Part shown: one piece after another, positions 6,692 through 58,415 of the stretch | How positions within the stretch are numbered: position 1 is the first letter of the stretch | How the letters are laid out: every line of letters starts with the position of its first letter | Origin: a virus | Lineage: Duplodnaviria > Heunggongvirae > Uroviricota > Caudoviricetes | DNA length: 64,000 nt | Reading direction: 5' to 3' (one strand) | IMG/VR virus record: IMGVR_UViG_3300018080_000113 | Location: 64,097-128,096 of that record | The notes under the pieces: generated by a model | The model's input: the letters and a program-made list of their open reading frames with translations, nothing else | Database searches by the model: none | What the model was told of the DNA's origin: nothing | Position numbers and translations under genes: made by a program

Positions 6692-7155
6692 TAAATTACC
6701 GTGTTCTCTGTATATTCTACCTTTAGTACAATATCTGTTTTATTTTGTGCATTGGTATTAGGTGGACAAGAAATGAAATACCAGAAAGGAAAATATGTAG
6801 CCGAATCTCCAACTCCATCAGAGCCAATGTCATCCATATCTATATATTCTCCCCAGTCAATATTATCCCATTCTGCTTCTGTAGGTTCTGTTCCGCCCTT
6901 ATTGAGTTTAATTCCCCAGCCAGTTTCAGTATATCCTACATCTCCATATGGATTTGCATCAACAAGATCAACAGGAGTAATTTTGATATTTGAATACCAC
7001 ACTGCACTATCGTCGTTACGCAAATAAAGAATAATAGGACTTTCGTCTCCTTCTTTGCCGTCATGTGTAGTAGTTATTGGATTAGTTAAGTCTGTGCCTG
7101 TTGTAGCCAAAGACAATAAACCATCAGAATCTCTAAAATATACCTCAAGAGCCAT
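6691..7155 (-). CDS. hypothetical protein
   Basis: 154-aa ORF immediately downstream of terL. Confidence 0.45.
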   Translation of the reverse strand: MALEVYFRDSDGLLSLATTGTDLTNPITTTHDGKEGDESPIILYLRNDDSAVWYSNIKITPVDLVDANPYGDVGYTETGWGIKLNKGGTEPTEAEWDNIDWGEYIDMDDIGSDGVGDSATYFPFWYFISCPPNTNAQNKTDIVLKVEYTENTVI

Positions 7156-7163
7156 TTTGCCTC

Positions 7164-10100: not shown

Positions 10101-10352
10101 AACCTTATCTCTAACAGAACGAAGAATATCTAATTGAGTATCAGTTTTGGTAGCCTTCTCCATTGGAGATACAAGTTCGTTTGAAATACCAGTACAAGGA
10201 ACCATAAAGTTCTTACCAACTGCCTGGCCTTCATAGATATGTTTTTCGTACTTTTTAATCTGTGCACGAACACATTCATGGCATTGCGGAATGACCTTAT
10301 CTACATCAAATGGTAAATTAAGATCTCTTAAGTCAGCTAATTCATCTTTCAT
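7164..10352 (-). CDS. terL: terminase large subunit interrupted by an intein (extein ~645 aa)
   Basis: Walker A VLRIGRRTGKTD. After intein removal the junction reads ...DADDIY/CEEMDYIDE (Walker B-like). A C-terminal nuclease-like region (LDHRLDAFNLAVVAF) follows. Confidence 0.85.
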   Translation of the reverse strand: MKDELADLRDLNLPFDVDKVIPQCHECVRAQIKKYEKHIYEGQAVGKNFMVPCTGISNELVSPMEKATKTDTQLDILRSVRDKVEFAKQFAKLPGNLPWVARWYQEQVLRCTSRRKVLRIGRRTGKTDSVCMEILFKLFTSTDRKIFVTGPQKVHVEEIFTRIRAFIAANPILKDSVIRDVAAPYYEIKLRNGSRARGFAGGAKGKKEGLAGRGQDADDIYCFPKGTLVNTSKFSVKPIEDLTLQDTVLGGDEKGVYVGDIQNLGIRKGTLVTVPTALNTIKCTPDHPLFNGKEDIEAKDAREVVVSLYHKELTFGYENVIARLLGFMYGDGWISSNIVGWSGQPEDLEQVQIDLMSLGDKKHKISAREMNNVDRGIYGFGAQIRSSYAYKFFKDLHPDGKKVLQPIRVPGFIKHGKSCLKTSFLSGLFSAESTGVKYQKNNRTPRALALNMRSQQKEWIELWFSDICALLDEIDIKYSISFKQLADEDRWVGYLSINNSKENIDSFVEKIGFCYSAEKTRLANSWKLYRHYESNWKSERWIKNRLIRLQVGTSSKISLSLNIPKSTIKYHKKLYDKLYSERLLTPYELVEKLTWKDGYVLLPVIRENVRFCNEPVDVYNLTSGAANRFFAGGLFTHNCEEMDYIDETALRSGILPILHTSPHTSLVGFSTPTGFKTPYYTLCEENPHYKEFHFTYKVLPWWRQVEAEKAQFTEEDWKHEYLAEWGTAEAGVYKPSYIDRSLVDYEYKTIQRNPSWKYTIGTDWNEKHGTEIVVLGFNPFTNMFQVVDSLHVERSEFTQLTGVSKLLEMNRKWKPHFVYIDAGNGSTNYEILRKTAYENMKKEGDRDTANLLRILKKYDAGASIETRDPVSAQRKKSPAKPFMVNASVRLFEQNSIRLSSHDHILEKQLRSYIIERITPTKVPVYGLDDPKALDHRLDAFNLAVVAFQLEFDSLHVRNVNTQVASVPDPRTLKNQGSPDKNLSKERVSTPQERRLDGGFQKTVVEEQLFASLPARVDNGLNGIRTNKPGWDTDDEDRHIAEFLQRRRGRQTIRRDRPSRSNF
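8439..9689 (-). mobile_element. intein (~417 aa) with LAGLIDADG homing-endonuclease domain inside terL
   Basis: N-terminal splice block CFPKGTLV starts with Cys, codon at 9689-9687. LAGLIDADG motifs are LLGFMYGDGW and FLSGLFSAES. C-terminal block FTHN is followed by Cys+1, Asn codon 8441-8439. Boundaries were checked by reverse-complement translation. Confidence 0.75.
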
Positions 10353-11150: not shown

Positions 11151-11153
11151 AGA

Positions 11154-11642
11154 TTAATAGCCTCTATTTGAGGAAAGAACAGAAGAACCAATATGAGCCG
11201 CAGAAGCAGTGCCAATTGCGCCCATTGCCATGCCGCCATATTTATTAACAGCAGTAGCATTACGTCCTATAGCACTACGAGCGCCAGCCATACCCATGCC
11301 AACGCCTCTTGCCATATCTGCACCGTATCCAGCAGCAACTCCGCCAAGTCCAGTTCCGCCTACAAGAGATCTAGCTGCTGCGTTAGTAAGTTTACCTCTT
11401 CCCCATTTGGCTCCTCGAATGCCCATTCCTAAAGCACCACGAGACATTCCTGCAATGCCACCACGTCTACGCGCAAGATTCCCAGCCATCTTTACTCCTG
11501 CTCCACCCATAAGACCACCGCCAAGTGCTCCGCCTGCAGCGCCCATCCAGCCGCCGCCACCAGAACCGCCATAAATACCACCAGCAGCTGCTCCCCAAGC
11601 TGTTCTACCTAAAAGACTCATATCTTCACTCCCTTTGATCAA
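11154..11642 (-). CDS. glycine-rich protein (possible internal virion protein)
   Basis: 162-aa ORF, more than 40% Gly/Ala/Met. Plus-strand Pro/Ala-rich ORFs overlapping it are antisense artefacts. Confidence 0.5.
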   Translation of the reverse strand: MIKGSEDMSLLGRTAWGAAAGGIYGGSGGGGWMGAAGGALGGGLMGGAGVKMAGNLARRRGGIAGMSRGALGMGIRGAKWGRGKLTNAAARSLVGGTGLGGVAAGYGADMARGVGMGMAGARSAIGRNATAVNKYGGMAMGAIGTASAAHIGSSVLSSNRGY

Positions 11643-15951: not shown

Positions 15952-16041
15952 TAGTATGAAGTGTAGGGGTGGTAGGTGCCCCTCTGTGTTCGGAGCCCAC
16001 GGGGTCCACAACAGCTGCAAGGCGCAGCAGAAGGAGTCGTC

Positions 16042-16362
16042 ATGACTAATCAAAACAACACAACTAACAACAATAACAATACTCTGAGATTCAGTGATTT
16101 AAGTGTACAAGAGAATATTGAAGACACTATCAGGATGATGAGTCCTATTGTTAATGAAGAGGTGACTACTCCTGGTAGTACACCTGTGTACATGAGTGTG
16201 AGGGACGAGTGTACCGTCCCTGATGCTATCAGTGGAGAGGACAGACTAGCGTACGTGTGTACGTTGGTCGTACTTAACAATATGAGTAGCACTGACCTTA
16301 GTGCTGCTCTAGACGAGGCAGAGGAGAGAGTACTGTGGCTCTCACTGGTGAACGGTACGTAG
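16042..16362 (+). CDS. hypothetical protein, GC-rich foreign composition (N-terminus MTNQNNTTNNNNN)
   Basis: ATG 16042 preceded by AGGAGTC. Shares its SD+ATGAC start context and Asn/Thr-rich N-terminus with the 16672 gene. Confidence 0.4.
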   Translation: MTNQNNTTNNNNNTLRFSDLSVQENIEDTIRMMSPIVNEEVTTPGSTPVYMSVRDECTVPDAISGEDRLAYVCTLVVLNNMSSTDLSAALDEAEERVLWLSLVNGT

Positions 16363-16399
16363 ATAGCAGTAGTAGCGGTAGTAGGGCGTAGGTACTCAG

Positions 16400-16580
16400 G
16401 CCTACCTGTGTGTTCAAGTCACACTCACCCTGTATATGTACATGTGTGTACACTAAGGCCCAGTCTACATGGTAGATGGATGGGAGATACACTGGTGTGT
16501 GCATGTATGTACGTATGTGTATCTGTATGTGTATGCATACAGGTACATGCATGGGTATATGTGTATAGGTACGTATGGTA
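16400..16580. repeat. GT/AC-rich alternating purine-pyrimidine low-complexity tract (TGTATG/TGCATG-like units)
   Basis: Seen directly. ORFs across it on either strand are low-complexity artefacts. Confidence 0.6.
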
Positions 16581-16581
16581 T

Positions 16582-16660
16582 GTGCCTATATGTGTATACC
16601 CCTATATAAGGGTACCCCTATATGGAGGGGTGCCTATATGACATGCCCTATATGGGGCAA
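16582..16660. repeat. five iteron-like direct repeats G(Y)RCC(C)CTATAT(R)(R)
   Basis: Copies of CCTATAT at 16584, 16602, 16617, 16633 and 16646 with conserved flanks, immediately upstream of the 16672 gene. Confidence 0.55.
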
Positions 16661-16671
16661 AGGAGTCTATC

Positions 16672-17652
16672 ATGACAACTCTCAATAACAACACCCTCGT
16701 CGTCGCCATCGCCAACGCCCGCAACCTCAACGGTCTGACCCAAGAGGCCAAGGCTGTAGAGAACAAGTGGTGGGGTGACCTATCCCTGGCATGGGATGCC
16801 ATCAGGGAACTAAACCCTGTAGACGACACCACCGGTGAGAGGGATGAGGCTATCGTAGGGCGCTGCTATGGGGAGAGCCATGTGGCAGAGGCCTATGGTA
16901 TCAACTGGATCGAGATGCACTGTGATCGGGAGCTGTGGGACATGGAACAGAGAGATTTGGCCCTCAGGGACATGTATCCTGTAGCAAAGAAGTTGGCCAG
17001 AGAGGCCATCAGTGAGAAACAACAAGATGCAGCCAAACATCTTATGGTAGCCGTAATCAACATGGGCAGGTCCACTGTAGAGGACATGAATAAGTACGAT
17101 GGGGCCAAAAGGATGGATGATAGGGCCAATGAGCTGAAGAGCGACTACACCTCCAGGTGGGAGCGTAGCCGTATGCTCCTAGAGTATATCTCTGAAGGCA
17201 TCAATGACTGGGACGCTAAAACCGTCCTTAAGTATATCAACCTCTGTGACAGGAGGAACAAGCTCGACAAGAAAGATGAGTATCGGATGCTCTTCCCGTT
17301 CTACATTGCCAGCGGTGTACTACTGCATGCCGCTATGGCAGAAAGGGGCTACGGCAAACTCCAAAACAGAAGCAAGGGACTGCTCAATTGGTTCTTGGAG
17401 AAGTATGACCATCATGACGTAGAGGCACAGGTAGTACCCCAAGAGGATGATGAAGTAGTCAAGTTCGGGTTCGATGAGAACCGGGACAGTGACGAAGAGG
17501 CGACCGATAAGGTGGCAGGGAATGCCTTCTCTGTCAATGTGGATAGCATGATAGACCTTAAGGACTATTGTGTTCGAGAGGCAGGAAAGAGAGGTGTTAC
17601 TCCCATGGAGGTGCTAGAGGAGATAGATGAGAGTCAGGTCAACTGGCTCTAG
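16672..17652 (+). CDS. hypothetical protein, GC-rich (~55-60% GC versus ~37% background)
   Basis: 326-aa ORF with AGGAGTC SD; codon usage is clearly atypical for this genome. Confidence 0.55.
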   Translation: MTTLNNNTLVVAIANARNLNGLTQEAKAVENKWWGDLSLAWDAIRELNPVDDTTGERDEAIVGRCYGESHVAEAYGINWIEMHCDRELWDMEQRDLALRDMYPVAKKLAREAISEKQQDAAKHLMVAVINMGRSTVEDMNKYDGAKRMDDRANELKSDYTSRWERSRMLLEYISEGINDWDAKTVLKYINLCDRRNKLDKKDEYRMLFPFYIASGVLLHAAMAERGYGKLQNRSKGLLNWFLEKYDHHDVEAQVVPQEDDEVVKFGFDENRDSDEEATDKVAGNAFSVNVDSMIDLKDYCVREAGKRGVTPMEVLEEIDESQVNWL

Positions 17653-17659
17653 CCCTTAG

Positions 17660-18115
17660 GGCTGTAGGTATTTAGGCCTGCTTGCTGTTCGAGTCAGCAC
17701 AGCTCTATACCACGCTTCGCTCCGCTCCCTTCGGTCGCTTCGCTCAGCTACTCGCTGCAGCTCGCCTCTTGCTTGCGCAAGAGTCAAGCCTCCGCTCAAA
17801 CATCGTAGACAGAGCTTCGCTCCGTCTCAGGCACACCTCTTGCTGTCGCAAGAGTTGCGCCTTCAACTACGCTTCGCATTGAACTCGCTCACTTCGTTCG
17901 CTCAAACATCAATCATCAACTCCGCTTCGCTGCGGCACAGCTCTTGCTTACGCAAGACCTCTGCCTTCGCTTCACTTCATACGGAGCTGACAATTGGACG
18001 TTACCAACTGACGTCTTCGACATCAATTGGACAACTTGAACCCTTCAGGTTCTTCGACATCAGTCGTCGTTATCACTCCTCCTTTCGAGCACATGCGGAT
18101 ATAAGAGCGAGATAG
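17660..18115. repeat. GC-rich array of CGCTTCGC units and three hairpins with stems CTCTTGC / GCAAGAG
   Basis: CGCTTCGCT-like units occur at least 6 times. Hairpins lie at roughly 17768, 17838 and 17942. AGCCCTTAGGGCT hairpin at 17654. Confidence 0.6.
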
Positions 18116-32966: not shown

Positions 32967-33339
32967 GGGTCTGACACGGTTTAGACTTTATTGTGACGGG
33001 TGACAATGCATGTCTCGGGGTGGGTATCACCGAGTTAAAAAGATAACCAAAACAGTAATTGGCGAAGATTACTACCCAATGCAGGCTGCTGCTTAAGCAC
33101 CTGCCGTCAACGCTAGCAAGTGTTACATAACTAGTTGAGGCGTCATTTTATGTAATTGCTCTCAAGGAGTTACCGGATGTACTTGAGAAAAGACTAAATA
33201 TCCTGTCCCTAGAATATGATTGTTTTGTTTGTTTTATCAATTATATGAGAGGGTGGCTCGGTAAAGAAAACATTCTAAACATGTGAATGATTTGCATTTA
33301 GATCAATGAAGGACCTCGGTTCGACTCCGAGCAGATCCA
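32967..33339 (+). ncRNA. ssrA: tmRNA (SsrA), one-piece; predicted tag GEDYYPMQAAA-stop
   Basis: 5' GGGTCTG pairs with 3' CAGATCC, giving a G3:U70 alanine identity pair. The 3' end is GGAC + T-arm (CTCGG TTCGACT CCGAG) + acceptor + discriminator A. GTGACGGG lies near the 5' end. An A-rich run precedes the tag frame 33061-33096, which ends GCT GCT GCT TAA. Confidence 0.7.
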
Positions 33340-33523
33340 AAATCAATGTTTTGTATTAGTTTCCAGTTTCTCTATAAGAACTGGTGGTGGAGGCGATGGG
33401 AAACCTGAGCCCTTGTCGTGAACTGGGTGCGACATAAAACAATACGGTGCGAAACCAGAGGCGAACGTCTTAATCCTCGACAGTAAAATCAGGCGTGACT
33501 ACTAGGAGAGACTAGTTCTTTAT

Positions 33524-34026: not shown

Positions 34027-34401
34027 ATGTGGTGTGAAGTATACTTTAAGGTGATAGTAGCAGGAGGTAGAGACTTTAAGAATTATAACCTTTTAGAAAA
34101 GAAACTTGATGTGTTATTGTCCAACAAGGTGTCAGATCATACTATTGTTATTGTGAGTGGCGGTGCGAATGGTGCCGATAAGCTTGGGGAAAGATATGCC
34201 AAAAAGAGGAACTATAAGGTAGATAAGTTTCCAGCTGATTGGGATAAATATGGAAAACGTGCTGGGTATCTTAGAAATGAAGAAATGGCTAAGCATGGTG
34301 ATGTTCTTGTAGCATTTTGGGATGGCGTGTCTCGTGGAACTGGCCACATGATTAACATTATGAAAAGGCTTAATAAGCCTGTAAAGATTGTAAGATATTG
34401 A
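34027..34401 (+). CDS. DUF2493-like SLOG-family (DprA/LOG-like Rossmann) protein
   Basis: Pattern VIVAGGRDF ... IVSGGANGADKLGERYA ... PADWDKYGKRAGYLRN ... VAFWDG.SRGT. Confidence 0.5.
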   Translation: MWCEVYFKVIVAGGRDFKNYNLLEKKLDVLLSNKVSDHTIVIVSGGANGADKLGERYAKKRNYKVDKFPADWDKYGKRAGYLRNEEMAKHGDVLVAFWDGVSRGTGHMINIMKRLNKPVKIVRY

Positions 34402-40306: not shown

Positions 40307-40798
40307 ATGTCTGAAATTAAGTATCTTATTGGAGATGCAACAGAGCCTGTAGGATCTGGACCTCGTATGATTTTACATGTTTGTAATGATATTGGAGGAT
40401 GGGGAAGAGGATTTGTTTTAGCGCTTAGTAATAAGTGGGAAGGCCCAGAAAGAGAATATCGTATTTGGGCAACGGGCCAAAATCCAGAATATCCTAAGTT
40501 TCAACTTGGAGAAATTCAAGCAGTAGAAGTAAAACAAGATCTTTTTGTTGTTAACATGATTGGCCAACATGGAGTAACTTGGGTTGGAGATATTCCTCCT
40601 GTAAGATATGACAGAATTCGTCAGTGTCTTAATAAAGTTGTTAAGATGGCGAAATATATATCAGAAGATACCGTTATTCATATGCCTCGCATTGGATCAG
40701 GCTTGGCAGGCGGAACATGGCAAGTGATTGAAGGCCTAATCAAAGAAACACTCATTGGGGCAGGGATTGATGTTTTTGTTTATGATTTGCCGGAATAA
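40307..40798 (+). CDS. macro-domain protein (ADP-ribose binding / processing)
   Basis: LIGDATEP ... VCNDIGGWGRGF ... IGSGLAGG matches the macro-fold signature. Confidence 0.65.
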   Translation: MSEIKYLIGDATEPVGSGPRMILHVCNDIGGWGRGFVLALSNKWEGPEREYRIWATGQNPEYPKFQLGEIQAVEVKQDLFVVNMIGQHGVTWVGDIPPVRYDRIRQCLNKVVKMAKYISEDTVIHMPRIGSGLAGGTWQVIEGLIKETLIGAGIDVFVYDLPE

Positions 40799-40844
40799 TA
40801 GAATTGAATAGAATTAAACTGAACAGAACCGAAAGGAAAAGAAC

Positions 40845-41285
40845 ATGACAGAAATTACTTTTTATGACCTCGTAAAGATCTTTGGTGTAGCTCAAGCAAC
40901 AGATGCAGTAGAAAGCCATGTCGACAGACAATATGCAAAGCTTTGCCAAGAATCACCTAGAACAGAAGATACAGAAACTCGTATTCGTATCTTCAAAGAA
41001 GACCCTTTTACTTTTGTGCAAGCTATGGCACTGGACGATAGTGGATTTAACAAGACTAGACCCGTTCAGCCTATTTATGGAGACACGGGACCTATGAAAG
41101 ATCCTCAGGGCAAATACAACGTTAAGTGTTCGAACGGAAGTTTTGAAATTAATGTTGGAGACTATCTTATCTTGTCTACTGACAATAAAAACAATCATCA
41201 AAACATTGAAGTCATGTCTCAAAATCAATTCAAGACTTCGTATGTTAGAAGCGAAAATGTGTCTAGTTTCAAAATGCCACTTTAA
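40845..41285 (+). CDS. hypothetical protein
   Basis: 146-aa ORF. Confidence 0.45.
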   Translation: MTEITFYDLVKIFGVAQATDAVESHVDRQYAKLCQESPRTEDTETRIRIFKEDPFTFVQAMALDDSGFNKTRPVQPIYGDTGPMKDPQGKYNVKCSNGSFEINVGDYLILSTDNKNNHQNIEVMSQNQFKTSYVRSENVSSFKMPL

Positions 41286-41287
41286 AA

Positions 41288-41514
41288 TGGCTACTTATAG
41301 ACTTGCAGAACATCATCCTGCAATGAAAGCTCTTAATGAGTTGTGGCAGAAAGCAGACGAACTTGGCATTAATATATGCGTCATTAGTGAATGCGCTATA
41401 GTCACAATAAATGGAAAAGATTTTAAATTACAGGATATAGAAAATAGTGATTATCCTATGACTGAATTTCCTCCTAGTTGTGAATTTAAACTTACATACG
41501 AAAAAGAGGAGTAG
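41288..41514 (+). CDS. hypothetical protein
   Basis: Internal ATG of ORF 41143..41514, just after the upstream stop. Confidence 0.35.
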
Positions 41515-41517
41515 ATA

Positions 41518-42384
41518 ATGTTTGATAGTCTTGGCGACCGCATGAAGAAATATGAGAAGACTGAAACAGGCAGAAAATTTATGCCTTTGCTTCCTGTAGT
41601 AGCAAGAATAGACGGAAAGGCTTTTCATACTTGGACCAAAGGACTTGATAGACCATTTGATGCTGACATGATTCAAATCATGCAGAATACTACCAAAAAA
41701 CTTGTTGAAGAAACTAGTGCTAAGGTTGGTTATACACAAAGTGACGAGATCTCTCTTGTGTTCTATTCAGATGATATTGAAAGTCAAATATTCTTTGATG
41801 GCAAAATCTTTAAGATGACTAGTGTACTTGCTAGTATGACTACTGCTATTTTCAACGAAAAAATTCTTAGTTTAGCAGGTAATTTGTACAATGATTCTAC
41901 TTGTTACGAAACAGAGACAACAAGAAGACTTAATAAAATAGTTACAAAACCAATGGCATTATTTGATTGTAGAGTGTGGCAAATGCCTACAAAGGAAGAA
42001 GTTTGTAACTATCTAGTTTGGCGCGAGCAAGACGCAGTAAGAAATAGTATTCAATCTGTAGGCCAAGCCAATTTTTCTCAGAAACAATTGCATGGTAAAA
42101 GCCAAAAAGAAATTCAAGAAATGTTGTTTCAAGAAAAAGACATCAACTGGAATGACTGCTTAATAGCTGAGAAGAGAGGAACTTACTTTCAGAAGCGTCA
42201 AGTAGAAAGGATGTTCTCTGTGAATGAACTTACAAAGCTTCCTGAGAAACATGAGGCTAAAAAGAATCCTTATCTTAAAGTTCTTCGAAATGACATTGTT
42301 ACTTTAAACATGCCTAGACTTGCTTCTATTGATAATAGGATAGAGGTTGTTTTTGATGGAGCTGAGCCAGTTATAAAAAGGTAA
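41518..42384 (+). CDS. Thg1-like tRNA-His guanylyltransferase / 3'-5' polymerase (TLP)
   Basis: N-terminal RIDGKAFHTWTK and metal-binding YTQSDEISLVF are the Thg1 hallmark blocks. Confidence 0.65.
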   Translation: MFDSLGDRMKKYEKTETGRKFMPLLPVVARIDGKAFHTWTKGLDRPFDADMIQIMQNTTKKLVEETSAKVGYTQSDEISLVFYSDDIESQIFFDGKIFKMTSVLASMTTAIFNEKILSLAGNLYNDSTCYETETTRRLNKIVTKPMALFDCRVWQMPTKEEVCNYLVWREQDAVRNSIQSVGQANFSQKQLHGKSQKEIQEMLFQEKDINWNDCLIAEKRGTYFQKRQVERMFSVNELTKLPEKHEAKKNPYLKVLRNDIVTLNMPRLASIDNRIEVVFDGAEPVIKR

Positions 42385-42388
42385 GTCA

Positions 42389-42574
42389 ATGTTAAATAAA
42401 GATTGTGAAGACTGCATGTCTTACGAACTAAAGATAACAAAAGAAATATGTCCTAAATCACAAAAAGAATGTGGGCATCATTGTGATCATTCTTGGACGC
42501 ATGATATATGTTGCTGGTGTGGCAAAGAATGGGGAGAACAATCAGATGTGCTTGATAATAACCGAAGAGTCTAA
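42389..42574 (+). CDS. Cys/His-rich small protein
   Basis: 61-aa ORF (CEDC ... CGHHCDH ... CCWC). Confidence 0.4.
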   Translation: MLNKDCEDCMSYELKITKEICPKSQKECGHHCDHSWTHDICCWCGKEWGEQSDVLDNNRRV

Positions 42575-42956
42575 GATTAAAACCACACGAATCAAACGCA
42601 AACGAGAAGATATTGTCGCGTACAAAGTAGTTACAGTAGATTATGAAAGTCCGTTTTATCGTGACTTCGTGTGGTCCAAGAATGGCACCGTGTTGTCTGG
42701 GCGGAAAAGCGCTAGAAGAACAAATCGCGAAAACAGAGCGATGGAAATCCATAGCGGCGTGCACTTGATCACGGAAAGACCTGAAGTTGTGAACGGCAAA
42801 CTAGCGTGTCCGTGTCCGTATCCGTGTCTGTGTCCATATTATATTGTGTTAAAAATACGAGTTCGTGCTGAAGATTTGATTGCAGTTGGCATGTGGAACG
42901 TTGAAAGATCTATGGTTGTTACAAAATGTGAAGTTTTAGGTGTTGTAAATGAATAA
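42552..42956 (+). CDS. hypothetical protein (start uncertain)
   Basis: Internal ATG of ORF 42471..42956; contains the inverted microsatellite copy. Confidence 0.4.
   Translation: MIITEESKIKTTRIKRKREDIVAYKVVTVDYESPFYRDFVWSKNGTVLSGRKSARRTNRENRAMEIHSGVHLITERPEVVNGKLACPCPYPCLCPYYIVLKIRVRAEDLIAVGMWNVERSMVVTKCEVLGVVNE
42806..42835. repeat. inverted partial copy (~30 nt) of the 37260-37320 (GACACG/GATACG) microsatellite
   Basis: GTGTCCGTGTCCGTATCCGTGTCTGTGTCC is the reverse complement of units in the esterase-gene repeat. Confidence 0.6.
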
Positions 42957-43251
42957 CATTCTAAAAGACAGAGAATGTACAGGATGTGGATGTCTATTTG
43001 TTCCTTATGACAACCGTATTAACAATATAACAGACAAAAGATGTCCATATTGTGGTGGTGGCAGAGGACATGTAGTTAAGATTCCTGCTCAACGTATCAA
43101 AGAACTTCAAGATAAGGTTGAATCACTAGAAGGAGACTTAGAGACTTTTGCAGCTAACGCTTTAGAACGGATGAACGATCTTCAAAGAGAAATTGACAAG
43201 TTAAGACAAAGAGATGCAGATGGGCCAGACTGGAAAGATTGTAGCTACTAA
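42949..43251 (+). CDS. zinc-ribbon plus coiled-coil protein
   Basis: CTGCGC ... CPYCGGG. Confidence 0.45.
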   Translation: MNNILKDRECTGCGCLFVPYDNRINNITDKRCPYCGGGRGHVVKIPAQRIKELQDKVESLEGDLETFAANALERMNDLQREIDKLRQRDADGPDWKDCSY

Positions 43252-43265
43252 AGGAGCAAACTAAA

Positions 43266-43493
43266 ATGGGATATTGGCAAAAAGAACCTGATCTTCTATT
43301 TAGAAAAGGCATGGATATGTTTGGCAAGTTTGACTGGGAAAACTATACATACATGGGCAAAGATAAAGAAGATGCTGTTGTGACAGCATTCCTAGATGAC
43401 AATAATCTAGTAGAAATGACAATAACTTCTGCATGTGTTGGATTCTCATATACTTTTCAGAAAAGACCAAGAGTAAAAACCAATGATAATTAA
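43266..43493 (+). CDS. hypothetical protein
   Basis: 75-aa ORF. Confidence 0.45.
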   Translation: MGYWQKEPDLLFRKGMDMFGKFDWENYTYMGKDKEDAVVTAFLDDNNLVEMTITSACVGFSYTFQKRPRVKTNDN

Positions 43494-44679
43494 ATCAATC
43501 TTAGATACAGATTTATATAAACTTACGATGGGCCAAGCTATTGCCCAAAAGTTTCCTCATGCCAAAGCTCAATATAAATTCATTAATCGTGGCGGAACCA
43601 AATTTCTCCGTAGCACTGCAAGAGAGCTTAAGCAAGAAATTCAAAATATGGCAAGTCTTAAGCTTAGTGCAAATGAAAAGGACTGGCTTAGAGCAAACTG
43701 TTCATACTTCAATCCTGTTTATCTAGATTTCTTGGCAGGGTATAAATATGACCCTTCTGAAGTAGATGTTAGATTCTATAGTACATCATCAGAAGACGAT
43801 GGGTCTGATATGGCATTAGGAGATATTGATATTACAATTACAGGGCCTTGGTATCGCACTGTTTATTGGGAAGTTCCATTGATGGCAATTGTCTCTGAGC
43901 TATACAACAGGAACAGTAAACAACCTAGTTATTGTGACATTGAAACTGTTGTAGAGAAAAGCAAAACATTGACTAGCAACGAATGTTTCTTTGCTGACTT
44001 TGGTACGAGAAGAAGATTTAGCCAACAACACCATGACAAAGTAGTAAAAACTTTAGACAAACAGATGGGTACATTTGTCGGTACAAGCAATGTTCATTTG
44101 GCAATGCAATATCAAGTTAAACCAATTGGGACTCAGGCACATGAATGGTTTATGTTCCATGGTGCAAAATATGGTTATCGCGAAGCTAATAGAATAGCAC
44201 TTAAGAACTGGGTTGACGTTTATCATGGTAGTCTTGGTATTGCATTAACAGATACTTTTGGTACTGATGATTTCTTTAAGAGCTTTGGCTCAAAATATTC
44301 AAAACTATTTGATGGCATTCGTCACGATAGTGGCGACTGGAATACATTTGCAAAAACTACTATTGCACATTATTTGAAAAAAAACATTAACCCTAATACT
44401 AAAACGATTGTATTTTCAGATGGTCTTAATGTAAAAAAAGTTCTTGAAATAAATAAAGCTTATGACAGAAGAATCAAATGTTCTTATGGTATTGGCACAA
44501 ACCTTACTAACGATATTAAAGATGGAGCAAAACCACTTAATATGGTTATCAAAATGACAAGCTGTAAGCCTTATGAAGAACATAATTGGTTGCCGGTTGT
44601 TAAGTTGTCTGACGACAAGGGCAAACATACAGGCGCTTCTGAAGAGATTGAATTGTGTAAAAAAACATTGAGGCTATAA
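43483..44679 (+). CDS. pncB: nicotinate phosphoribosyltransferase
   Basis: Blocks match E. coli PncB: ILDTDLYKLTM, GPWYRTVYWEVPLMAIVSE, DFGTRRRFS, GTSN, IGTQAHEWF, GIALTD, RHDSGD, FSDGLN, YGIGT, KLSDDKGK. Confidence 0.85.
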   Translation: MIIKSILDTDLYKLTMGQAIAQKFPHAKAQYKFINRGGTKFLRSTARELKQEIQNMASLKLSANEKDWLRANCSYFNPVYLDFLAGYKYDPSEVDVRFYSTSSEDDGSDMALGDIDITITGPWYRTVYWEVPLMAIVSELYNRNSKQPSYCDIETVVEKSKTLTSNECFFADFGTRRRFSQQHHDKVVKTLDKQMGTFVGTSNVHLAMQYQVKPIGTQAHEWFMFHGAKYGYREANRIALKNWVDVYHGSLGIALTDTFGTDDFFKSFGSKYSKLFDGIRHDSGDWNTFAKTTIAHYLKKNINPNTKTIVFSDGLNVKKVLEINKAYDRRIKCSYGIGTNLTNDIKDGAKPLNMVIKMTSCKPYEEHNWLPVVKLSDDKGKHTGASEEIELCKKTLRL

Positions 44680-44946
44680 ATGAAATCTACTGATATTTTA
44701 ATGAAGTCACCAGGTTATATAGTAACTGGATTTACACGAAACACAAACGCAAGAGGATATAAAGAATTAGAAATAGACGATATTATTCAATTCTCTATTA
44801 GAGTAAGAACAAATTCACGTTATTCTTCAGATGTAATTATATCTTGTCTTAACAAAGGTATTAGTTGGGCAAACAATCAGGGTTTATTTGCATTAAATAT
44901 TGGAATATTGGAACTTAAGGAGATTGATGATGGAATATTGCTATAA
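44680..44946 (+). CDS. hypothetical protein
   Basis: 88-aa ORF between pncB and nadE. Confidence 0.4.
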   Translation: MKSTDILMKSPGYIVTGFTRNTNARGYKELEIDDIIQFSIRVRTNSRYSSDVIISCLNKGISWANNQGLFALNIGILELKEIDDGILL

Positions 44947-45715
44947 GATTGCAGAATGGATTAAAGATTATTTTCAAGAAACAGGGAAAACAAAAGCTAT
45001 TGTTGGTATTTCAGGTGGAATTGATTCAGCAGTTGTGGCTTCTCTTTGTGTAAAAGCTTTAGGCAAAGAAAATGTTCTTGGTGTAATTATTCCTATTGAA
45101 TCATCAATTTATGATGGCTTAGATGCTATGAAAGTAATAGAAAAGCTTGGTATTGATCATATTGAAGTTCATGGTGATTCTCCATTTTATAAAACGTGGC
45201 AAAAGATTATTGATTCTACAATCGGTCTTGCTAGAGAAAATAAACTTATAAAGAATCACAAACTAGTCAAAGGAAATGTTAAAGCACGCATAAGAATGAC
45301 AACTCTATATGCTATTTCTGAAATGACTAACGGGTTGGTTGTTGGCACTACAAACAAGACAGAAGCTCTTATTGGATATGCCACCAAATATGGTGACGGC
45401 GGTGTTGATATTGAACCAATCATGGATTATTACAAAACAGAAGTTTTTGAAATGGCACGTTATCTTGATGTTCCTGTGAGTATTATCAATAAGAAACCAT
45501 CGGCAGGACTGTGGGACGGACAAACTGATGAAGATGAGCTTGGAATGTCATATGCAGAAATTGATATGGCCCTTAAGCTTATCAAAGGCGAACCTTTCTA
45601 TGGCGTACAAAAAACACAGTCTTGGTCTTTGTTTAAAGAAACAGTTGCTAAAGTTGAGAAACTTATCCAAACAACAGAACATAAAAGAAATCTTCCTCCG
45701 TATTATAAGAGGTAA
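44927..45715 (+). CDS. nadE: NH3-dependent NAD+ synthetase
   Basis: PP-loop SGGIDSAV, TTNKTEALIGYATKYGDGGVDIEPI and AGLWDGQTDEDELG. Track start 44900 is TTG; first ATG is 44927 after AAGGAG. Confidence 0.85.
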   Translation: MMEYCYKIAEWIKDYFQETGKTKAIVGISGGIDSAVVASLCVKALGKENVLGVIIPIESSIYDGLDAMKVIEKLGIDHIEVHGDSPFYKTWQKIIDSTIGLARENKLIKNHKLVKGNVKARIRMTTLYAISEMTNGLVVGTTNKTEALIGYATKYGDGGVDIEPIMDYYKTEVFEMARYLDVPVSIINKKPSAGLWDGQTDEDELGMSYAEIDMALKLIKGEPFYGVQKTQSWSLFKETVAKVEKLIQTTEHKRNLPPYYKR

Positions 45716-45730
45716 CAATAAGGATTCAAA

Positions 45731-46270
45731 ATGAAAACTCTAATCGTAGTAGACGCACAAAAAGATTTTATGCCTGGTGGAAACTTAGCAGTCCCAAATG
45801 GTGATGAAATTGTTCCATATATTAATAACATTAAAAAGAACTATGATTTAGTTATTTGGACAAAAGATTGGCATCCACAGAATCATTGTTCTTTCTTGGC
45901 ACAAGGTGGTATTTGGCCTGAACATTGTGTTCAAATGAGTCAAAATGCTGCATTGCATGGCAATCTAGAAGTTCTTGGTGAAGACTATGTTGTTACTAAA
46001 GGATGCAATCAAAAGTTTGATAGCTATAGTGCATTCTTTGACGATGGCGGAACCGATACGGGCTTAGAATCTTTACTCGTTAGCAGAGGAATAACAGAGA
46101 TTGACATCTGTGGCTTGGCACTTGAATATTGCGTAAAATTTACTGTATTAGATGCGTTGAAACTTGGACACAAGGTAAATCTACTTACGTCTGGTTGTCG
46201 TGGAATTGACAACAATGATGTTGCTTCTGCTTTAACAGAAATGAAAACTAAAGGTGCAAACATTATCTAG
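45731..46270 (+). CDS. pncA: nicotinamidase (isochorismatase family)
   Basis: LIVVDAQKDF (catalytic Asp), DWHPQNHCSF (metal site), VVTKG (Lys), DICGLALEYCV (Cys). Confidence 0.8.
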   Translation: MKTLIVVDAQKDFMPGGNLAVPNGDEIVPYINNIKKNYDLVIWTKDWHPQNHCSFLAQGGIWPEHCVQMSQNAALHGNLEVLGEDYVVTKGCNQKFDSYSAFFDDGGTDTGLESLLVSRGITEIDICGLALEYCVKFTVLDALKLGHKVNLLTSGCRGIDNNDVASALTEMKTKGANII

Positions 46271-46279
46271 GAGTACAAA

Positions 46280-46822
46280 ATGACAATAATAGGTTTGCTG
46301 GGCGGTACGTTTGATCCTCCTCATCTTGGTCATCTTGCAGTAGCAAGAATAGCATTGTGGACTGGCGATATTGATGCAGTATGGATGCTTCCTTGTTGGG
46401 AACATGCTTTTGGCAAAAAACCAAAAGACTTTCATCATAGAGCAAGTATGTGTCAACAGATGGTAGAAGAAGAGAAAGATGTTCTTGTTTGTACCGATGA
46501 GGCAGAAATTAAATCAAAATGCGCAATGGACATTCTGACCTATATTATAAAGAAAAATCCTGACAAAGAATTTAGATTGATTCTTGGTACTGATAATTAC
46601 TGGAAAATGGATCAATGGGAAGATAGGCCTGGAGTTTATAAACTAGCAAGGCCTCTTTGGGTCGAACGCTCTGGCGAGTCTAGAATTCCTGAAAGGGTTT
46701 GTTTTCTTAGTAATGACATTAGTTCTACAAAGGCAAGACAAGCTCTTACTGATGGAGAGCCAGTAAATGAAATGCTGCACGATAAAGTAATTAAATATAT
46801 TGTGCAAAATAAGGTTTATTAA
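46280..46822 (+). CDS. nadD: nicotinate/nicotinamide mononucleotide adenylyltransferase
   Basis: GGTFDPPHLGHL nucleotidyltransferase motif and C-terminal ISSTKAR. Confidence 0.8.
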   Translation: MTIIGLLGGTFDPPHLGHLAVARIALWTGDIDAVWMLPCWEHAFGKKPKDFHHRASMCQQMVEEEKDVLVCTDEAEIKSKCAMDILTYIIKKNPDKEFRLILGTDNYWKMDQWEDRPGVYKLARPLWVERSGESRIPERVCFLSNDISSTKARQALTDGEPVNEMLHDKVIKYIVQNKVY

Positions 46823-46823
46823 A

Positions 46824-47048
46824 ATGGTATATGCAGTTAATGCTAACCAAACAGCTAGAGCGGCATTATCTGAAGAGATGAAGCCTGTCTTTGGCCAAAT
46901 TGCTGAAGTTGCTTCAGAGGGGTTGTTTGCTACTCAAATAAGAGTAGAACCAAAAAACTTTCTTCGTTTTAAAAGAGAGTTAGAAAGAAGAAGATTTGAA
47001 GTTGAAGGACACATGAACGTTTTATATATTGAATGGCATACAGTATGA
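46824..47048 (+). CDS. hypothetical protein
   Basis: Internal ATG of ORF 46800..47048, right after the nadD stop. Confidence 0.4.
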   Translation: MVYAVNANQTARAALSEEMKPVFGQIAEVASEGLFATQIRVEPKNFLRFKRELERRRFEVEGHMNVLYIEWHTV

Positions 47049-47053
47049 GCTAA

Positions 47054-47126
47054 GGGCGTATGGTGAAATTGGATATCATAAAAGATTTCTACTTTTTTGT
47101 TCTGGGTTCAAATCCTAGTGCGCCTG
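47054..47126 (+). tRNA. tRNA, anticodon TTC (Glu-like); weak D-stem and U37
   Basis: Acceptor GGGCGTA/TGCGCCT. Anticodon arm AAAAG-ATTTCTA-CTTTT. T-arm CTGGG TTCAAAT CCTAG. Confidence 0.45.
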
Positions 47127-47131
47127 CTGAA

Positions 47132-47204
47132 GTCTGCGTGGCCAAATTGGTACGGCATCTGACTGCAAATCAGAAGATTGTGGGTTCAACTCCCTCCGCA
47201 GACT
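47132..47204 (+). tRNA. tRNA-Cys (GCA)
   Basis: Acceptor GTCTGCG/CGCAGAC. Anticodon arm TCTGA-CTGCAAA-TCAGA. T-loop TTCAACT. Confidence 0.75.
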
Positions 47205-47224
47205 CTAAAAGATAAGGAGTTGGC

Positions 47225-48007
47225 ATGTATGAAGACAGGAAAAGACAAAATAAACGTTGGCATCAAGCACTATTAACAAGTAGACTTAATGATCAACGTG
47301 TGTTAAATCCTAAACTGAATCATGGTTCTATTTTAGTTTTGTCAGGACCTAATCCAGAAGAAGCTATTAAGTACTATGCCAAGTACAAAATGTATAGAAA
47401 CTGTATTCTTGTAGAGAGCAATAGAAAAACATTTGCTGAAGCTTATTTTAACTTCGACCCACTAGGTCGCCACATAGAGCTGATACGTGACGACATTTTT
47501 GTTGCAGCCAAAAGACATTCAAATGAGTTAAGAGGCATAGATTTTGATTTTTGTACTACGTTAAAAGAAGAATTAGTTAAAAAGATAGCAATTACAGTAG
47601 CAAGGTTAGAAAAACCTTGTATTTGGTTTAGAGTTACTAGTTGTCATAGAGGAATCAAAGGAGAAAAACTTAGAGAGAAACAAAATTCGATAGTTGAAGC
47701 TATTAAGAAACTTTCTGATTATCAACTAGTAGATGAAGCATTTGTAAACTATAGGGACAAGATCCCAATGAATACATGGCAAGTAGTCATGCGAAACAAC
47801 AGAAAGATGGAGGACGGAACAATGCGTACACTTAGAGAAATGACACATGCAGAGAAAGACATGGCTCGTGCACTCGTAGACCGAAAATACGACCAAAAAC
47901 AAAACACTAACTATAGCGATGACGACATTGCTCGTGTACTTCAAATGAGCCCTTACTCTGTATCGGCACTGAAAGCACATGTGACAATGCGTGACCAAAA
48001 TAACTAG
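47225..48007 (+). CDS. hypothetical protein with C-terminal helix-turn-helix (sigma region-4 / LuxR-like)
   Basis: 260-aa ORF ending ...DDDIARVLQMSPYSVSALKAHV. Confidence 0.5.
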   Translation: MYEDRKRQNKRWHQALLTSRLNDQRVLNPKLNHGSILVLSGPNPEEAIKYYAKYKMYRNCILVESNRKTFAEAYFNFDPLGRHIELIRDDIFVAAKRHSNELRGIDFDFCTTLKEELVKKIAITVARLEKPCIWFRVTSCHRGIKGEKLREKQNSIVEAIKKLSDYQLVDEAFVNYRDKIPMNTWQVVMRNNRKMEDGTMRTLREMTHAEKDMARALVDRKYDQKQNTNYSDDDIARVLQMSPYSVSALKAHVTMRDQNN

Positions 48008-48014
48008 TGAGAGT

Positions 48015-56675: not shown

Positions 56676-56863
56676 AACTTATTAATTATAAATGTAATAA
56701 ATGTGGTCGTGAAATTGAACGTATATGCCAAGATAGCGAATGGAAAAATATGGTAGATAATGAGGAATATGTTGATCTTGGTTTTTGTGAATGTGGTGGT
56801 ACCTTAAAGAGATTTAACTTTAAGAACAACAAACAAAACTGGAAATTTTTCGATGAGCGCTAA
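56672..56863 (+). CDS. zinc-ribbon small protein
   Basis: CNKCGR ... CECGG. Confidence 0.4.
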   Translation: MKLINYKCNKCGREIERICQDSEWKNMVDNEEYVDLGFCECGGTLKRFNFKNNKQNWKFFDER

Positions 56864-57113
56864 AGAAAAACCAGTCAATTATGAAAAAATATATCAGCAT
56901 CTAGAAGACAATGGATGGGAAAACAATTGGTCAGACTGTCGAGGCAGACAATATATAAAAGAATCTATTGTGATTGATGTAGATAAAACAATTCAAAAAG
57001 TTAGTTTTAGTACAGGTTGGTCCTGGGAAGAAGAAAAACTTAATGTAAATTTTTCAGTACCATTCAAGGATTTTAAAAAAAACTTTACAAAAAATAGATT
57101 TACTTTTTGCTGA
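56853..57113 (+). CDS. hypothetical protein
   Basis: 86-aa ORF. Confidence 0.4.
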   Translation: MSAKEKPVNYEKIYQHLEDNGWENNWSDCRGRQYIKESIVIDVDKTIQKVSFSTGWSWEEEKLNVNFSVPFKDFKKNFTKNRFTFC

Positions 57114-57148
57114 TTTGTTAAGAACATATAGCGAAAGTGATATCTAAA

Positions 57149-57222
57149 GGGCCTGTAACTCAGCTGGTCAGAGTACCCGATTCATAACCGGGTAGTCCTT
57201 GGTTCAAGTCCAAGCGGGCTCA
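57149..57222 (+). tRNA. tRNA-Met/Ile2 (CAT)
   Basis: Acceptor GGGCCTG/CGGGCTC. D-stem ACTC/GAGT. Loop TTCATAA. T-arm CTTGG TTCAAGT CCAAG. Confidence 0.8.
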
Positions 57223-57234
57223 ATAAGGAACAAA

Positions 57235-57432
57235 ATGAGCAATATTCTTAATGTAGTAACAAAATCTTTAGGAGATCCTGGTATCAGCCAAGCAAGACTT
57301 ATATCTATACTTGAAGATGCCAAAAGAGAAGATAAAGAAGGGCTTAGTAAGCTTTTAAAAAACTTTTATGCAATTGAACTTTCTAAAGGTGTACCGTCAA
57401 GTAGATATGATTTACTTAAGGGATATATGTAA
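57235..57432 (+). CDS. hypothetical protein
   Basis: Internal ATG of ORF 57199..57432, placed after the tRNA. Confidence 0.4.
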   Translation: MSNILNVVTKSLGDPGISQARLISILEDAKREDKEGLSKLLKNFYAIELSKGVPSSRYDLLKGYM

Positions 57433-57435
57433 TGA

Positions 57436-57509
57436 GGCCACATAGCCCAATTGGCAGAGGCAAGGGACTTAAAATCCCTAAAGTAAGAGTTCGAATCTCT
57501 TTGTGGCTA
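57436..57509 (+). tRNA. tRNA with anticodon TAA on a short-variable-arm (class I) scaffold
   Basis: Acceptor GGCCACA/TGTGGCT. Anticodon arm AGGGA-CTTAAAA-TCCCT. T-arm AAGAG TTCGAAT CTCTT. Confidence 0.65.
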
Positions 57510-57525
57510 TAAAGGAGTAAAACTA

Positions 57526-57708
57526 ATGGCAAGAGATAATTGTATAGCTAGTTTCATATTGAGATATGGAAGTATTGATGGCGCTCATCATAAGCAATGG
57601 GTTTTGGATCAAGTCTTAAAGGTTTTGCTTGAAGACAAATACGAAGAAACGATTAAAGAATATGAATCTGATGGAGAATACGAGTGGAACAAAGGAATTG
57701 CACCATAA
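57526..57708 (+). CDS. hypothetical protein
   Basis: 60-aa ORF. Confidence 0.35.
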   Translation: MARDNCIASFILRYGSIDGAHHKQWVLDQVLKVLLEDKYEETIKEYESDGEYEWNKGIAP

Positions 57709-57719
57709 AGGAGAATAGC

Positions 57720-58415
57720 ATGAGAGAAAACGAAGACCTAAAAGAAACTGAAGCTAAAACGGAAGAAGAAAAACCTAAAAGTGCAGTCGAAGCTCTAAAA
57801 GAAGCTTTCGATGACTATGTAGTTGAGTCTAGTCATCTTGTTTCGTACCCTTCAGCAATGCTTAGAACAAAATGTAAAGAAGTAAATATTGAGAAAGATG
57901 ATTCTGATTATTCTTATCATGAAGTTATTGATGATATGACAAAATTTCTTTTTGATTTTAATGCTCTTGGTCTTGCTGCTAACCAAGTTGGACATGATAT
58001 GCGTATTGTTGGTATTTGGGCCGACCAAAAGAAACTTCCTCTCTTTATGATTAATCCTAAAATCACAGACAAGGGCGGAACAATGATTGGTCCAGAGGCT
58101 TGTTTGAGTTTTCCTGGTGTTTTAGTTGATGTTAAGCGTTCAGCATCAATTACAGTAGAATATTACGATACTGACGGCGAGAAACATACTGAAGATTACT
58201 TCGGCAAAGAAGCAATCGTTATTCAACATGAAATTGATCATCTTGAAGGTATTACTCTTGTCCAAAGTGCCTCTAGGGTTTATCGAAGTAAAATCATGAA
58301 AGACCTAAAAGCTGGTAAGCGAAAGATGGTTAAATACGCAAAACTTCAAAAGAAAACAAGAAAACTTGAAGAATTTCTCAAAGAAGCTGACCGGCCAGCA
58401 GCAGAGGCTACATAG
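57720..58415 (+). CDS. def: peptide deformylase
   Basis: GLAANQVG, EACLSFPG and QHEIDHLEG are the three PDF motifs. ATG 57720 after AAGGAG. Confidence 0.75.
   Translation: MRENEDLKETEAKTEEEKPKSAVEALKEAFDDYVVESSHLVSYPSAMLRTKCKEVNIEKDDSDYSYHEVIDDMTKFLFDFNALGLAANQVGHDMRIVGIWADQKKLPLFMINPKITDKGGTMIGPEACLSFPGVLVDVKRSASITVEYYDTDGEKHTEDYFGKEAIVIQHEIDHLEGITLVQSASRVYRSKIMKDLKAGKRKMVKYAKLQKKTRKLEEFLKEADRPAAEAT

Follow-up and report, generated by a model that had tools for sequence, protein, structure and literature searches.

Depletion of nicotinamide adenine dinucleotide (NAD+) is among the commonest strategies that bacteria use against phages. Three phage pathways that restore NAD+ have been demonstrated experimentally: NARP1, NARP2 and NARP3. 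NARP1 is composed of Adps and Namat; its NARP1-AP version adds the macrodomain phosphatase Adpp, and a macrodomain gene occurs in 15% of NARP1 operons. NARP2 combines NadV (NAMPT) with a nicotinamide mononucleotide (NMN) adenylyltransferase, and its resynthesis of NAD+ from nicotinamide (Nam) has been shown to counter defences based on NAD+-cleaving enzymes (NADases) (Osterman et al. 2024). NARP3 is the pathway of PnuC and NadR (PMC13464706). NARP1 is in turn defeated by aRES, which makes ADP-ribose (ADPR)-1''-phosphate. Surveys by the Aravind group cover NadV, NadM and NadR systems only. Here we describe a cassette of five genes with a predicted deamidating NAD+ salvage pathway, located in 64,000 nucleotides (nt) of DNA from a virus of the class Caudoviricetes (IMG/VR record IMGVR_UViG_3300018080_000113, positions 64,097 to 128,096), a stretch that we call the window. 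We consider it probable that the cassette is a self-contained, phage-borne salvage module, the likeliest benefit of which, by analogy with NARP2, would be resynthesis of NAD+ from nicotinamide released by NADases.

Clusters of this general kind have been reported before. Li et al. (2024, Microbiome; PMC11662467) described 174 'NAD-jumbo phages' with complete salvage or Preiss-Handler pathways, presented an explicit pncB-nadD-nadE cluster (e.g., in Kuafu_71), and mentioned phage pncA. They read the clusters as providing independent NAD+ synthesis, feeding phage-encoded NAD+ consumers, and complementing host pathways. Like the window, these clusters bring together phage pncB, nadD and nadE, belong to large uncultured phages, and are known computationally. 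The window differs in the addition of pncA, which makes nicotinamide a possible input, in the presence of a small gene (orf88), and in its gene order. Furthermore, a 2026 genome paper on phage X1 (PMC13384950) speculated that pncB, nadD and nadE counter NAD+ depletion. The original prediction for this DNA had presented the cassette, if functional, as a third reconstitution route with a chemistry different from those of NARP1 and NARP2. The label is outdated, given that NARP3 already names the PnuC/NadR pathway (PMC13464706), and the novelty claim is not supported in view of the clusters of Li et al. and of the recurrence of the cassette in IMG/VR and in GenBank record MT835470.

The cassette can be placed among the described systems by its gene content. 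Like bacterial deamidating salvage, which couples PncA to the Preiss-Handler enzymes PncB, NadD and NadE, it presents the same four families, the same catalytic residues, and the same predicted chemistry; it differs in being phage-encoded, in fitting within a single 3.3-kb cassette, and in carrying an extra conserved protein of 88 amino acids (aa) between pncB and nadE. With NARP2 it shares the predicted rebuilding of NAD+ from nicotinamide, phosphoribosyl pyrophosphate (PRPP) and ATP independently of ADPR, whereas the route would take four steps through deamidated intermediates instead of two through NMN, would need ammonia, and would use PncB instead of NadV. A Pfam scan of about 76 open reading frames (ORFs) of the window detected no NadV, the only phosphoribosyltransferase (PRTase) matching the nicotinate PRTase (NAPRTase) equivalog. 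The same ORFs contained no Adps (PRPS-like), Namat or second PRTase family, no PnuC or NadR family, and no further NAD-related family. With NARP1, NARP1-AP and NARP3 the cassette has in common its predicted nature as a phage NAD+-restoring module, and a macrodomain gene lies nearby as in NARP1-AP. The window macrodomain is of the BT1257/SCO6735 type, lies 2.7 kb from the cassette, and would be unneeded for a route that starts from nicotinamide only.

Four predicted NAD+ enzymes and a small accessory protein

The cassette occupies positions 43483-46822 on the plus strand and consists of five tightly packed genes encoding PncB, the 88-aa protein, an ammonia-type NadE, PncA and NadD, in that order (Table 1). 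Spacing between neighbouring genes ranges from a 17-nt overlap to a 15-nt gap across the same-strand run in which they stand, Shine-Dalgarno-like motifs precede the cassette genes, and intrinsic-terminator prediction found no plus-strand terminator inside the cassette. A scan for sigma-70 promoters and intrinsic terminators between 39.5 and 50.5 kb returned sites fewer or no more numerous than in shuffled sequence and is uninformative on operon boundaries. The four adjacent enzyme genes of the original prediction were recovered at their positions and on their strand, with families backed by both Pfam and NCBIfam profiles. Pfam searches, which had been proposed as a check, returned NAPRTase_N with NAPRTase, NAD_synthase, Isochorismatase and CTP_transf_like. 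In NCBIfam, three of the enzymes scored above the trusted cutoffs and NadD just below. Sequence searches of the PDB retrieved solved relatives of the expected function for each of the four. Moreover, all of them have their signature or catalytic residues, the conservation of which across 31 to 71 distinct phage homologues for each enzyme speaks for purifying selection on catalysis.

PncB scored 424.9 bits against TIGR01514 (cutoff 269.55) and 468 bits against PRK05321 (cutoff 379). Its best solved relative is the NAPRTase of P. gingivalis (2im5; E 4.5e-102). Residue H220, located in an AHEW motif, aligns with the histidine of the HEW motif of 2im5 and is invariant in 70 of 71 phage homologues; it is presumably the residue that becomes autophosphorylated. 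The PHROG family annotated as nicotinamide PRTase matched weakly and partially (E 6.6e-15), and the assignment of PncB as a nicotinate PRTase is upheld by this pattern and by the TIGR01514 score. A NadV/NAMPT or quinolinate-PRTase identity, either of which had been named as grounds for rejecting the assignment, received no support, since the NAPRTase equivalog passes its cutoff.

The nicotinamidase assignment of PncA follows from a score of 177.6 against the nicotinamidase/pyrazinamidase model PRK11609 (cutoff 174) and from a PDB search in which the top seven matches were all nicotinamidases or their homologues. The triad D8/K90/C134 and the metal site D46/H48/H65 align with the catalytic triad and zinc site of P. 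horikoshii PncA, and at least 50 of 53 phage homologues retain these residues.

NadE scored 271.8 against PRK13980 (cutoff 255). Its start was set at the ATG at 44930, which has an AAGGAG Shine-Dalgarno motif 8 nt upstream and coincides with the start called for the same gene in an independent assembly (L004). The protein consists of a single domain of 261 aa, without the glutaminase (CN-hydrolase) domain, and is consequently assigned to the ammonia-dependent type, as had been predicted. All 56 phage homologues compared keep the SGGIDS P-loop unchanged. Its best PDB matches were 2e18 and 3fiu, with P. horikoshii NadE at E 1.7e-50 and 3fiu a close second at E 1.4e-47. We take 3fiu to be the Francisella tularensis enzyme that acts as an NMN synthetase; work by Sorci and colleagues of 2009 is said to have found that the NadE of this organism prefers nicotinate mononucleotide (NaMN).

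NadD is the one enzyme of the four under its threshold. It scored 108.1 against TIGR00482, about 4 bits below the cutoff of 112.45, and its best NCBIfam matches were all NadD models. All 15 matches of a PDB sequence search were to bacterial NadD, and the motifs GGTFDPPHLGH and SSTKAR are present, corresponding to the family signatures (H/T)xGH and ISSTxxR. The complete route from nicotinamide through nicotinate (NA), NaMN and nicotinate adenine dinucleotide (NaAD) to NAD+ thus holds on paper, by gene content, with NadD remaining under its equivalog cutoff.

The resemblance of NadE to 3fiu raises the matter of the order of the last two steps. In a Francisella-type arrangement (NadE* plus NadM), NadE would act as an NMN synthetase converting NaMN into NMN, and the adenylyltransferase would then convert NMN into NAD+, with NA, NaMN and NMN as intermediates. 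The short ammonia-dependent NadE of the window belongs to the PRK13980-type family, has 3fiu as its second-best solved relative, and is accompanied by an adenylyltransferase just under the NadD equivalog cutoff, all of which would fit such an order. However, the relatives of this adenylyltransferase are all of the NadD type and not NadM. NadD-type enzymes generally prefer NaMN, and NadM is the partner of the Francisella NadE. We consequently regard the Francisella-type order as improbable, and continue with adenylation before amidation as the predicted sequence.

The fifth gene, orf88, follows the stop codon of pncB without a gap, and its last 17 nt overlap the start of nadE. Its product matched no Pfam or NCBIfam family and only one PHROG, phrog_5068, which has no assigned function; a word-indexed protein search returned the query itself only, and pattern scans of IMG/VR and of JGI metagenomes with the orf88 alignment gave no matches. 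An exhaustive phmmer search retrieved 13 weak relatives, a handful of which measure 79-94 aa. Three of these (P0003, P0012 and P0007; 33-40% identity) lie directly upstream of a NadE gene and overlap it. Two loci (L168 and L169) have the gene order PncB-orf-NadE-PncA of the window, with NadE 52-56%, PncA 65-69% and PncB 50% identical. The original prediction had treated the 88-aa ORF as an insertion between pncB and nadE; its closest homologues hold the same position in other, independent cassettes, and this view has been abandoned. By sequence comparison, orf88 is a conserved accessory of this cassette subtype, a point that had not been made before. That it is a partner or regulator of NadE is a guess. 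Next to two further homologues, and next to one in Brevibacillus phage Jenst, no gene of NAD metabolism was recognised. Six long repeat proteins (P0002, P0004, P0005, P0008, P0009 and P0011) matched through a short motif only and were disregarded as homologues.

Recurrence of the cassette in phage genomes

A profile-guided scan of IMG/VR found 452 contigs that encode a relative of PncB. For a census we took the best 80 of the 452, added three phage loci from GenBank and two that an earlier scan had supplied (n = 85, the window excluded), and searched all ORFs in these loci with iterative hidden Markov models. PncA, PncB, NadE and NadD occurred together within 6 kb in 31 of the 85 viral loci, and 28 loci had the four on a single strand in a span of no more than 3 kb. 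De-replication of the four-gene loci, the window included, left 7 clusters at a PncB identity of 60% (9 at 70%), among which six gene orders occur. The largest group includes GenBank MT835470, from human faeces; in one of its representatives the neighbouring genes encode a phage DNA polymerase, a thymidylate synthase, a NUDIX protein and members of PHROG families. Moreover, the 735-kb megaphage LR756501 carries PncA, NadE and PncB within 8 kb.

The bacterial comparison comprised the 80 genomes whose PncB was most similar; most belong to Bacteroidota and some to Halomonadaceae. Within 6 kb of these bacterial pncB genes, pncA was found in 4, nadE in 1 and nadD in none, and no locus had all four (0/80). 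The contrast between 31 of 85 viral loci, spread over 7 lineages and 6 gene orders, and none of 80 bacterial loci indicates that the pathway has been consolidated repeatedly in phages. Set against the 80 closest bacterial loci, the presence of the whole pathway in a portable cassette is a recurrent and phage-specific feature under functional constraint, and this difference in gene organisation between phages and bacteria clearly bears the mark of selection for a complete pathway in portable form.

The closest relative of the window is a 197,730-bp IMG/VR contig (L005), in which the macrodomain, Thg1, PncB, NadE, NadD and Ro60 genes are syntenic at 47-58% amino-acid identity. Two positions differ. 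Upstream of pncB, at 6997-9261 of that contig, an RtcB-like ORF (judged by eye) and a divergent 268-aa isochorismatase-like protein replace the window-type pncA; the Pfam match of the latter is weak (E 2.5e-4, under the cutoff), with the motifs DPQHDF, PPHC, KG and SHC visible. The orf88 position is taken by a non-homologous ORF of 110 aa (11152-11484). These substitutions are the reason why the nicotinamidase slot and the small-ORF slot appear exchangeable between phages.

Could the genes be recently captured host passengers, or the product of a chimeric assembly, without function in the phage? They do encode typical cellular enzymes, and the closest bacterial PncB proteins (52-53% identical) are about as similar as the closest viral one (55%). 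In a neighbour-joining tree, the PncB of the window, L005 and L037 formed a small viral clade nested in a large one that mixes viral and bacterial sequences, and this tree did not identify a donor. Against this explanation, the cassette agrees with its flanks in strand and in guanine-cytosine (GC) content (0.34-0.38), is embedded between phage genes and phage tRNAs, keeps its synteny in L005 at about 50% identity, and has no close bacterial donor; diverse phage homologues retain its catalytic residues. The presence of an identical cassette in an assembly made independently (Logan SRR6963352; L004) makes misassembly unlikely. Such an origin is hardly credible.

Genomic setting

The cassette is phage-encoded, as predicted. 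The window contains phage hallmark genes (portal, large terminase (TerL) and RIIA), 11 dispersed tRNAs and a transfer-messenger RNA (tmRNA), and has the syntenic relative in IMG/VR described above. Megablast of the cassette against 50,697 phage records gave no match, the relatives being found at the protein level only. The portal shares about 30% identity with its counterparts in jumbo phages of Bacillus (0305phi8-36-like), Moorella and Acinetobacter (ME3). The longest contig with orf88 measures 140,323 bp and the window 64 kb, to be read against a jumbo-phage criterion of more than 200 kb.

Clues to the host conflict. PncB is nearest to proteins of Bacteroidota and Halomonadaceae (50-53% identity), and the macrodomain is nearest to BT1257, which we take to be a Bacteroides thetaiotaomicron protein. 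Shine-Dalgarno-like motifs (GGAG, GAGG or AGGA, 5-18 nt upstream) precede 39 of 58 plus-strand genes between 19 and 64 kb, versus 9.6% of random positions. Frequent Shine-Dalgarno motifs are unusual for Bacteroidota hosts, and their frequency here sits oddly with the Bacteroidota affinity of PncB and of the macrodomain.

Table 1. Coordinates of the cassette genes and of neighbouring features in the window.
Feature	Position	Strand	Size	Assignment and basis
Same-strand run	43266-47048	+		Order: orf75, pncB, orf88, nadE, pncA, nadD, orf74, tRNA-Arg
pncB	43483..44679	+	398 aa	Nicotinate phosphoribosyltransferase (NA + PRPP -> NaMN); Pfam NAPRTase_N + NAPRTase
orf88	44680..44946	+	88 aa	Small accessory protein; predicted SH3-like / FeoA-like beta-barrel
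nadE	44930..45715	+	261 aa	NH3-dependent NAD+ synthetase (NaAD + ATP + NH3 -> NAD+); Pfam NAD_synthase E 2e-76
pncA	45731..46270	+	179 aa	Nicotinamidase (Nam -> NA + NH3); Pfam Isochorismatase E 2.3e-25
nadD	46280..46822	+	180 aa	Nicotinate-mononucleotide adenylyltransferase (NaMN + ATP -> NaAD); Pfam CTP_transf_like E 1.2e-14
SLOG/YspA protein	34027-34401	+		PF10686, formerly DUF2493; Pfam; 9 kb upstream of cassette
Macrodomain protein	40307..40798	+		BT1257 / SCO6735 type; phmmer; 2.7 kb upstream of cassette
Thg1-like protein	41518-42384	+		tRNA-His guanylyltransferase
Ro60/TROVE protein	48129-49742	+		With vWA domain
vWA protein	51254-51919	+		Separate from Ro60/TROVE
RNA ligase	52168-53478	+
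Two phosphoesterases	54847-56197	+		Calcineurin-like
Peptide deformylase	57684-58415	+

Two neighbours had been thought to travel with the cassette. The macrodomain gene is real: it has no Pfam match, and phmmer related it to 2afc/2fg1 (BT1257) at E 7e-51 and to 5e3b ('Macrodomain protein') at 7.6e-43, with an additional weak N-terminal match to ADP-ribose 1''-phosphate phosphatase. Its association is weak: of the 85 other loci, only 8 have a homologue at 10 kb or less from PncB. The macrodomain is a loosely associated neighbour that is not required for the nicotinamide route. The SLOG/DUF2493 gene likewise exists, and its proposed association is unsupported: it lies 9 kb away here, and a single one of the 85 other loci has a homologue close to pncB.

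The surrounding segment (40307-58415, plus strand) is an island of RNA-repair and translation genes with interspersed tRNA genes, and this setting bears on what the cassette may be for. A general auxiliary metabolic module, supplying NAD+ to NAD+-consuming reactions of the phage or complementing a salvage-deficient host, is a possible reading that we hold tentatively. Among the candidate demands are NAD+-dependent ligation, Tpt1-type RNA repair, ADP-ribosylation, and the redox needs of a long infection. The company of Thg1-like, RNA ligase, Ro60, macrodomain, tRNA, tmRNA and peptide deformylase genes fits such a purpose just as well as counter-defence, and similar clusters have been interpreted as feeding phage NAD+ consumers (PMC11662467). 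Pseudomonas phage PA5oct, furthermore, up-regulates the host pncA-pncB1-nadE operon, which suggests a general NAD+ demand of jumbo phages. However, the Pfam scan detected no NAD+-consuming family (NAD-dependent ligase, Sir2, ADP-ribosyltransferase or Tpt1) among the window ORFs, with 64 kb of the genome visible. Inclusion of PncA points to nicotinamide, the product of NADases, as the input, and not to environmental niacin. Note that general supply and counter-defence are compatible and do not exclude each other.

Several other features of the window and of related loci were recorded. Homologues of the first calcineurin-like metallophosphoesterase (54847-55431, plus strand) occur within 10 kb of pncB in 31 of the 85 viral loci, mostly in one large lineage. 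In this lineage (e.g., L058, 7724-9234), pncA is immediately preceded by two phosphoesterase genes, and nadD is closely followed by one for a NUDIX protein; such neighbours could link processing of ADPR or of nucleotides to the cassette. Two tRNA-like elements on the plus strand (50245-50370 and 50789-50857), 0.5-1.1 kb downstream of the Ro60/TROVE gene, were not called by ARAGORN. The Rfam tRNA model scored the first at 52.6 bits (126 nt, with an insertion of about 55 nt) and the second at 29.6 bits, and they could represent a YrlA-type, tRNA-like Y RNA that partners the phage Ro60, or else a tRNA with an intron. The tmRNA (32967-33342, plus strand; Rfam 97.3 bits) has an ARAGORN-predicted tag peptide GEDYYPMQAAA.

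Outside the island, the TerL ORF (7164-10352, minus strand) has the unusual length of 1062 aa; only residues 640-957 match the PHROG for TerL, suggesting an N-terminal extension or an inserted element. A spike in GC content (0.50, versus about 0.38 in the window) at 16001-18000 coincides with the switch from minus-strand structural genes to plus-strand genes. The ORFs of this region at 15976-16362 and 16672-17652 have no Pfam match, and several ORFs rich in Leu, Ser and Ala look spurious.

Proposed role of the cassette

In the salvage and resynthesis role that we favour, the five genes would probably be co-transcribed and in part translationally coupled. PncA would convert nicotinamide into nicotinate, which PncB would combine with PRPP to give NaMN; NadD would adenylate NaMN to NaAD, and the ammonia-dependent NadE would amidate NaAD to NAD+. 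The NAD+ pool of the infected cell could in this manner be kept up on PRPP, ATP and ammonia of the host alone. Nicotinamide would come from NADase defence effectors (TIR, SIR2, SEFIR and RES), and the product would also feed the NAD+ needs of the phage itself. Since nicotinamide but not ADPR is required, the route should in principle work against canonical NADases and against aRES. That the enzymes are active and co-expressed, that adenylation precedes amidation, and that the cassette counters defence is our inference. The counter-defence role is the part that we purely infer, as sequence does not separate it from a general boosting of NAD+.

A number of considerations weigh against this proposal. 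The likeness of NadE to 3fiu means that amidation might precede adenylation, and NadD falls short of its equivalog cutoff and may prefer either NaMN or NMN. The deamidating route is costly, with three ATP-dependent steps in addition to PRPP, and phages also have a shorter one at their disposal, that of NadV. The cassette sits in the RNA-repair and translation island and not among recognised anti-defence genes. Finally, our literature searches found no experimental test of any phage Preiss-Handler enzyme or deamidating route.

A stronger version of the proposal would make the five-gene module a genuine fourth phage pathway of NAD+ reconstitution, one that beats nicotinamide-releasing NADases including aRES and to which orf88 contributes as a new, dedicated part that might, for instance, assist or regulate NadE or inhibit NADases directly. 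We consider this version unlikely. What the present case adds is a variant and not a concept: a new gene order, the inclusion of pncA, and a conserved small accessory protein. The cassette is a good and directly testable NARP-like candidate, and it holds no conceptual surprise.

If the deamidating route does counter defence, phages would have captured every major bacterial salvage chemistry. Because 452 IMG/VR contigs encode a relative of PncB, hundreds of uncultured large phages would then join the NAD+-reconstituting viruses, and another ADPR-independent module would become available for arming therapeutic phages.

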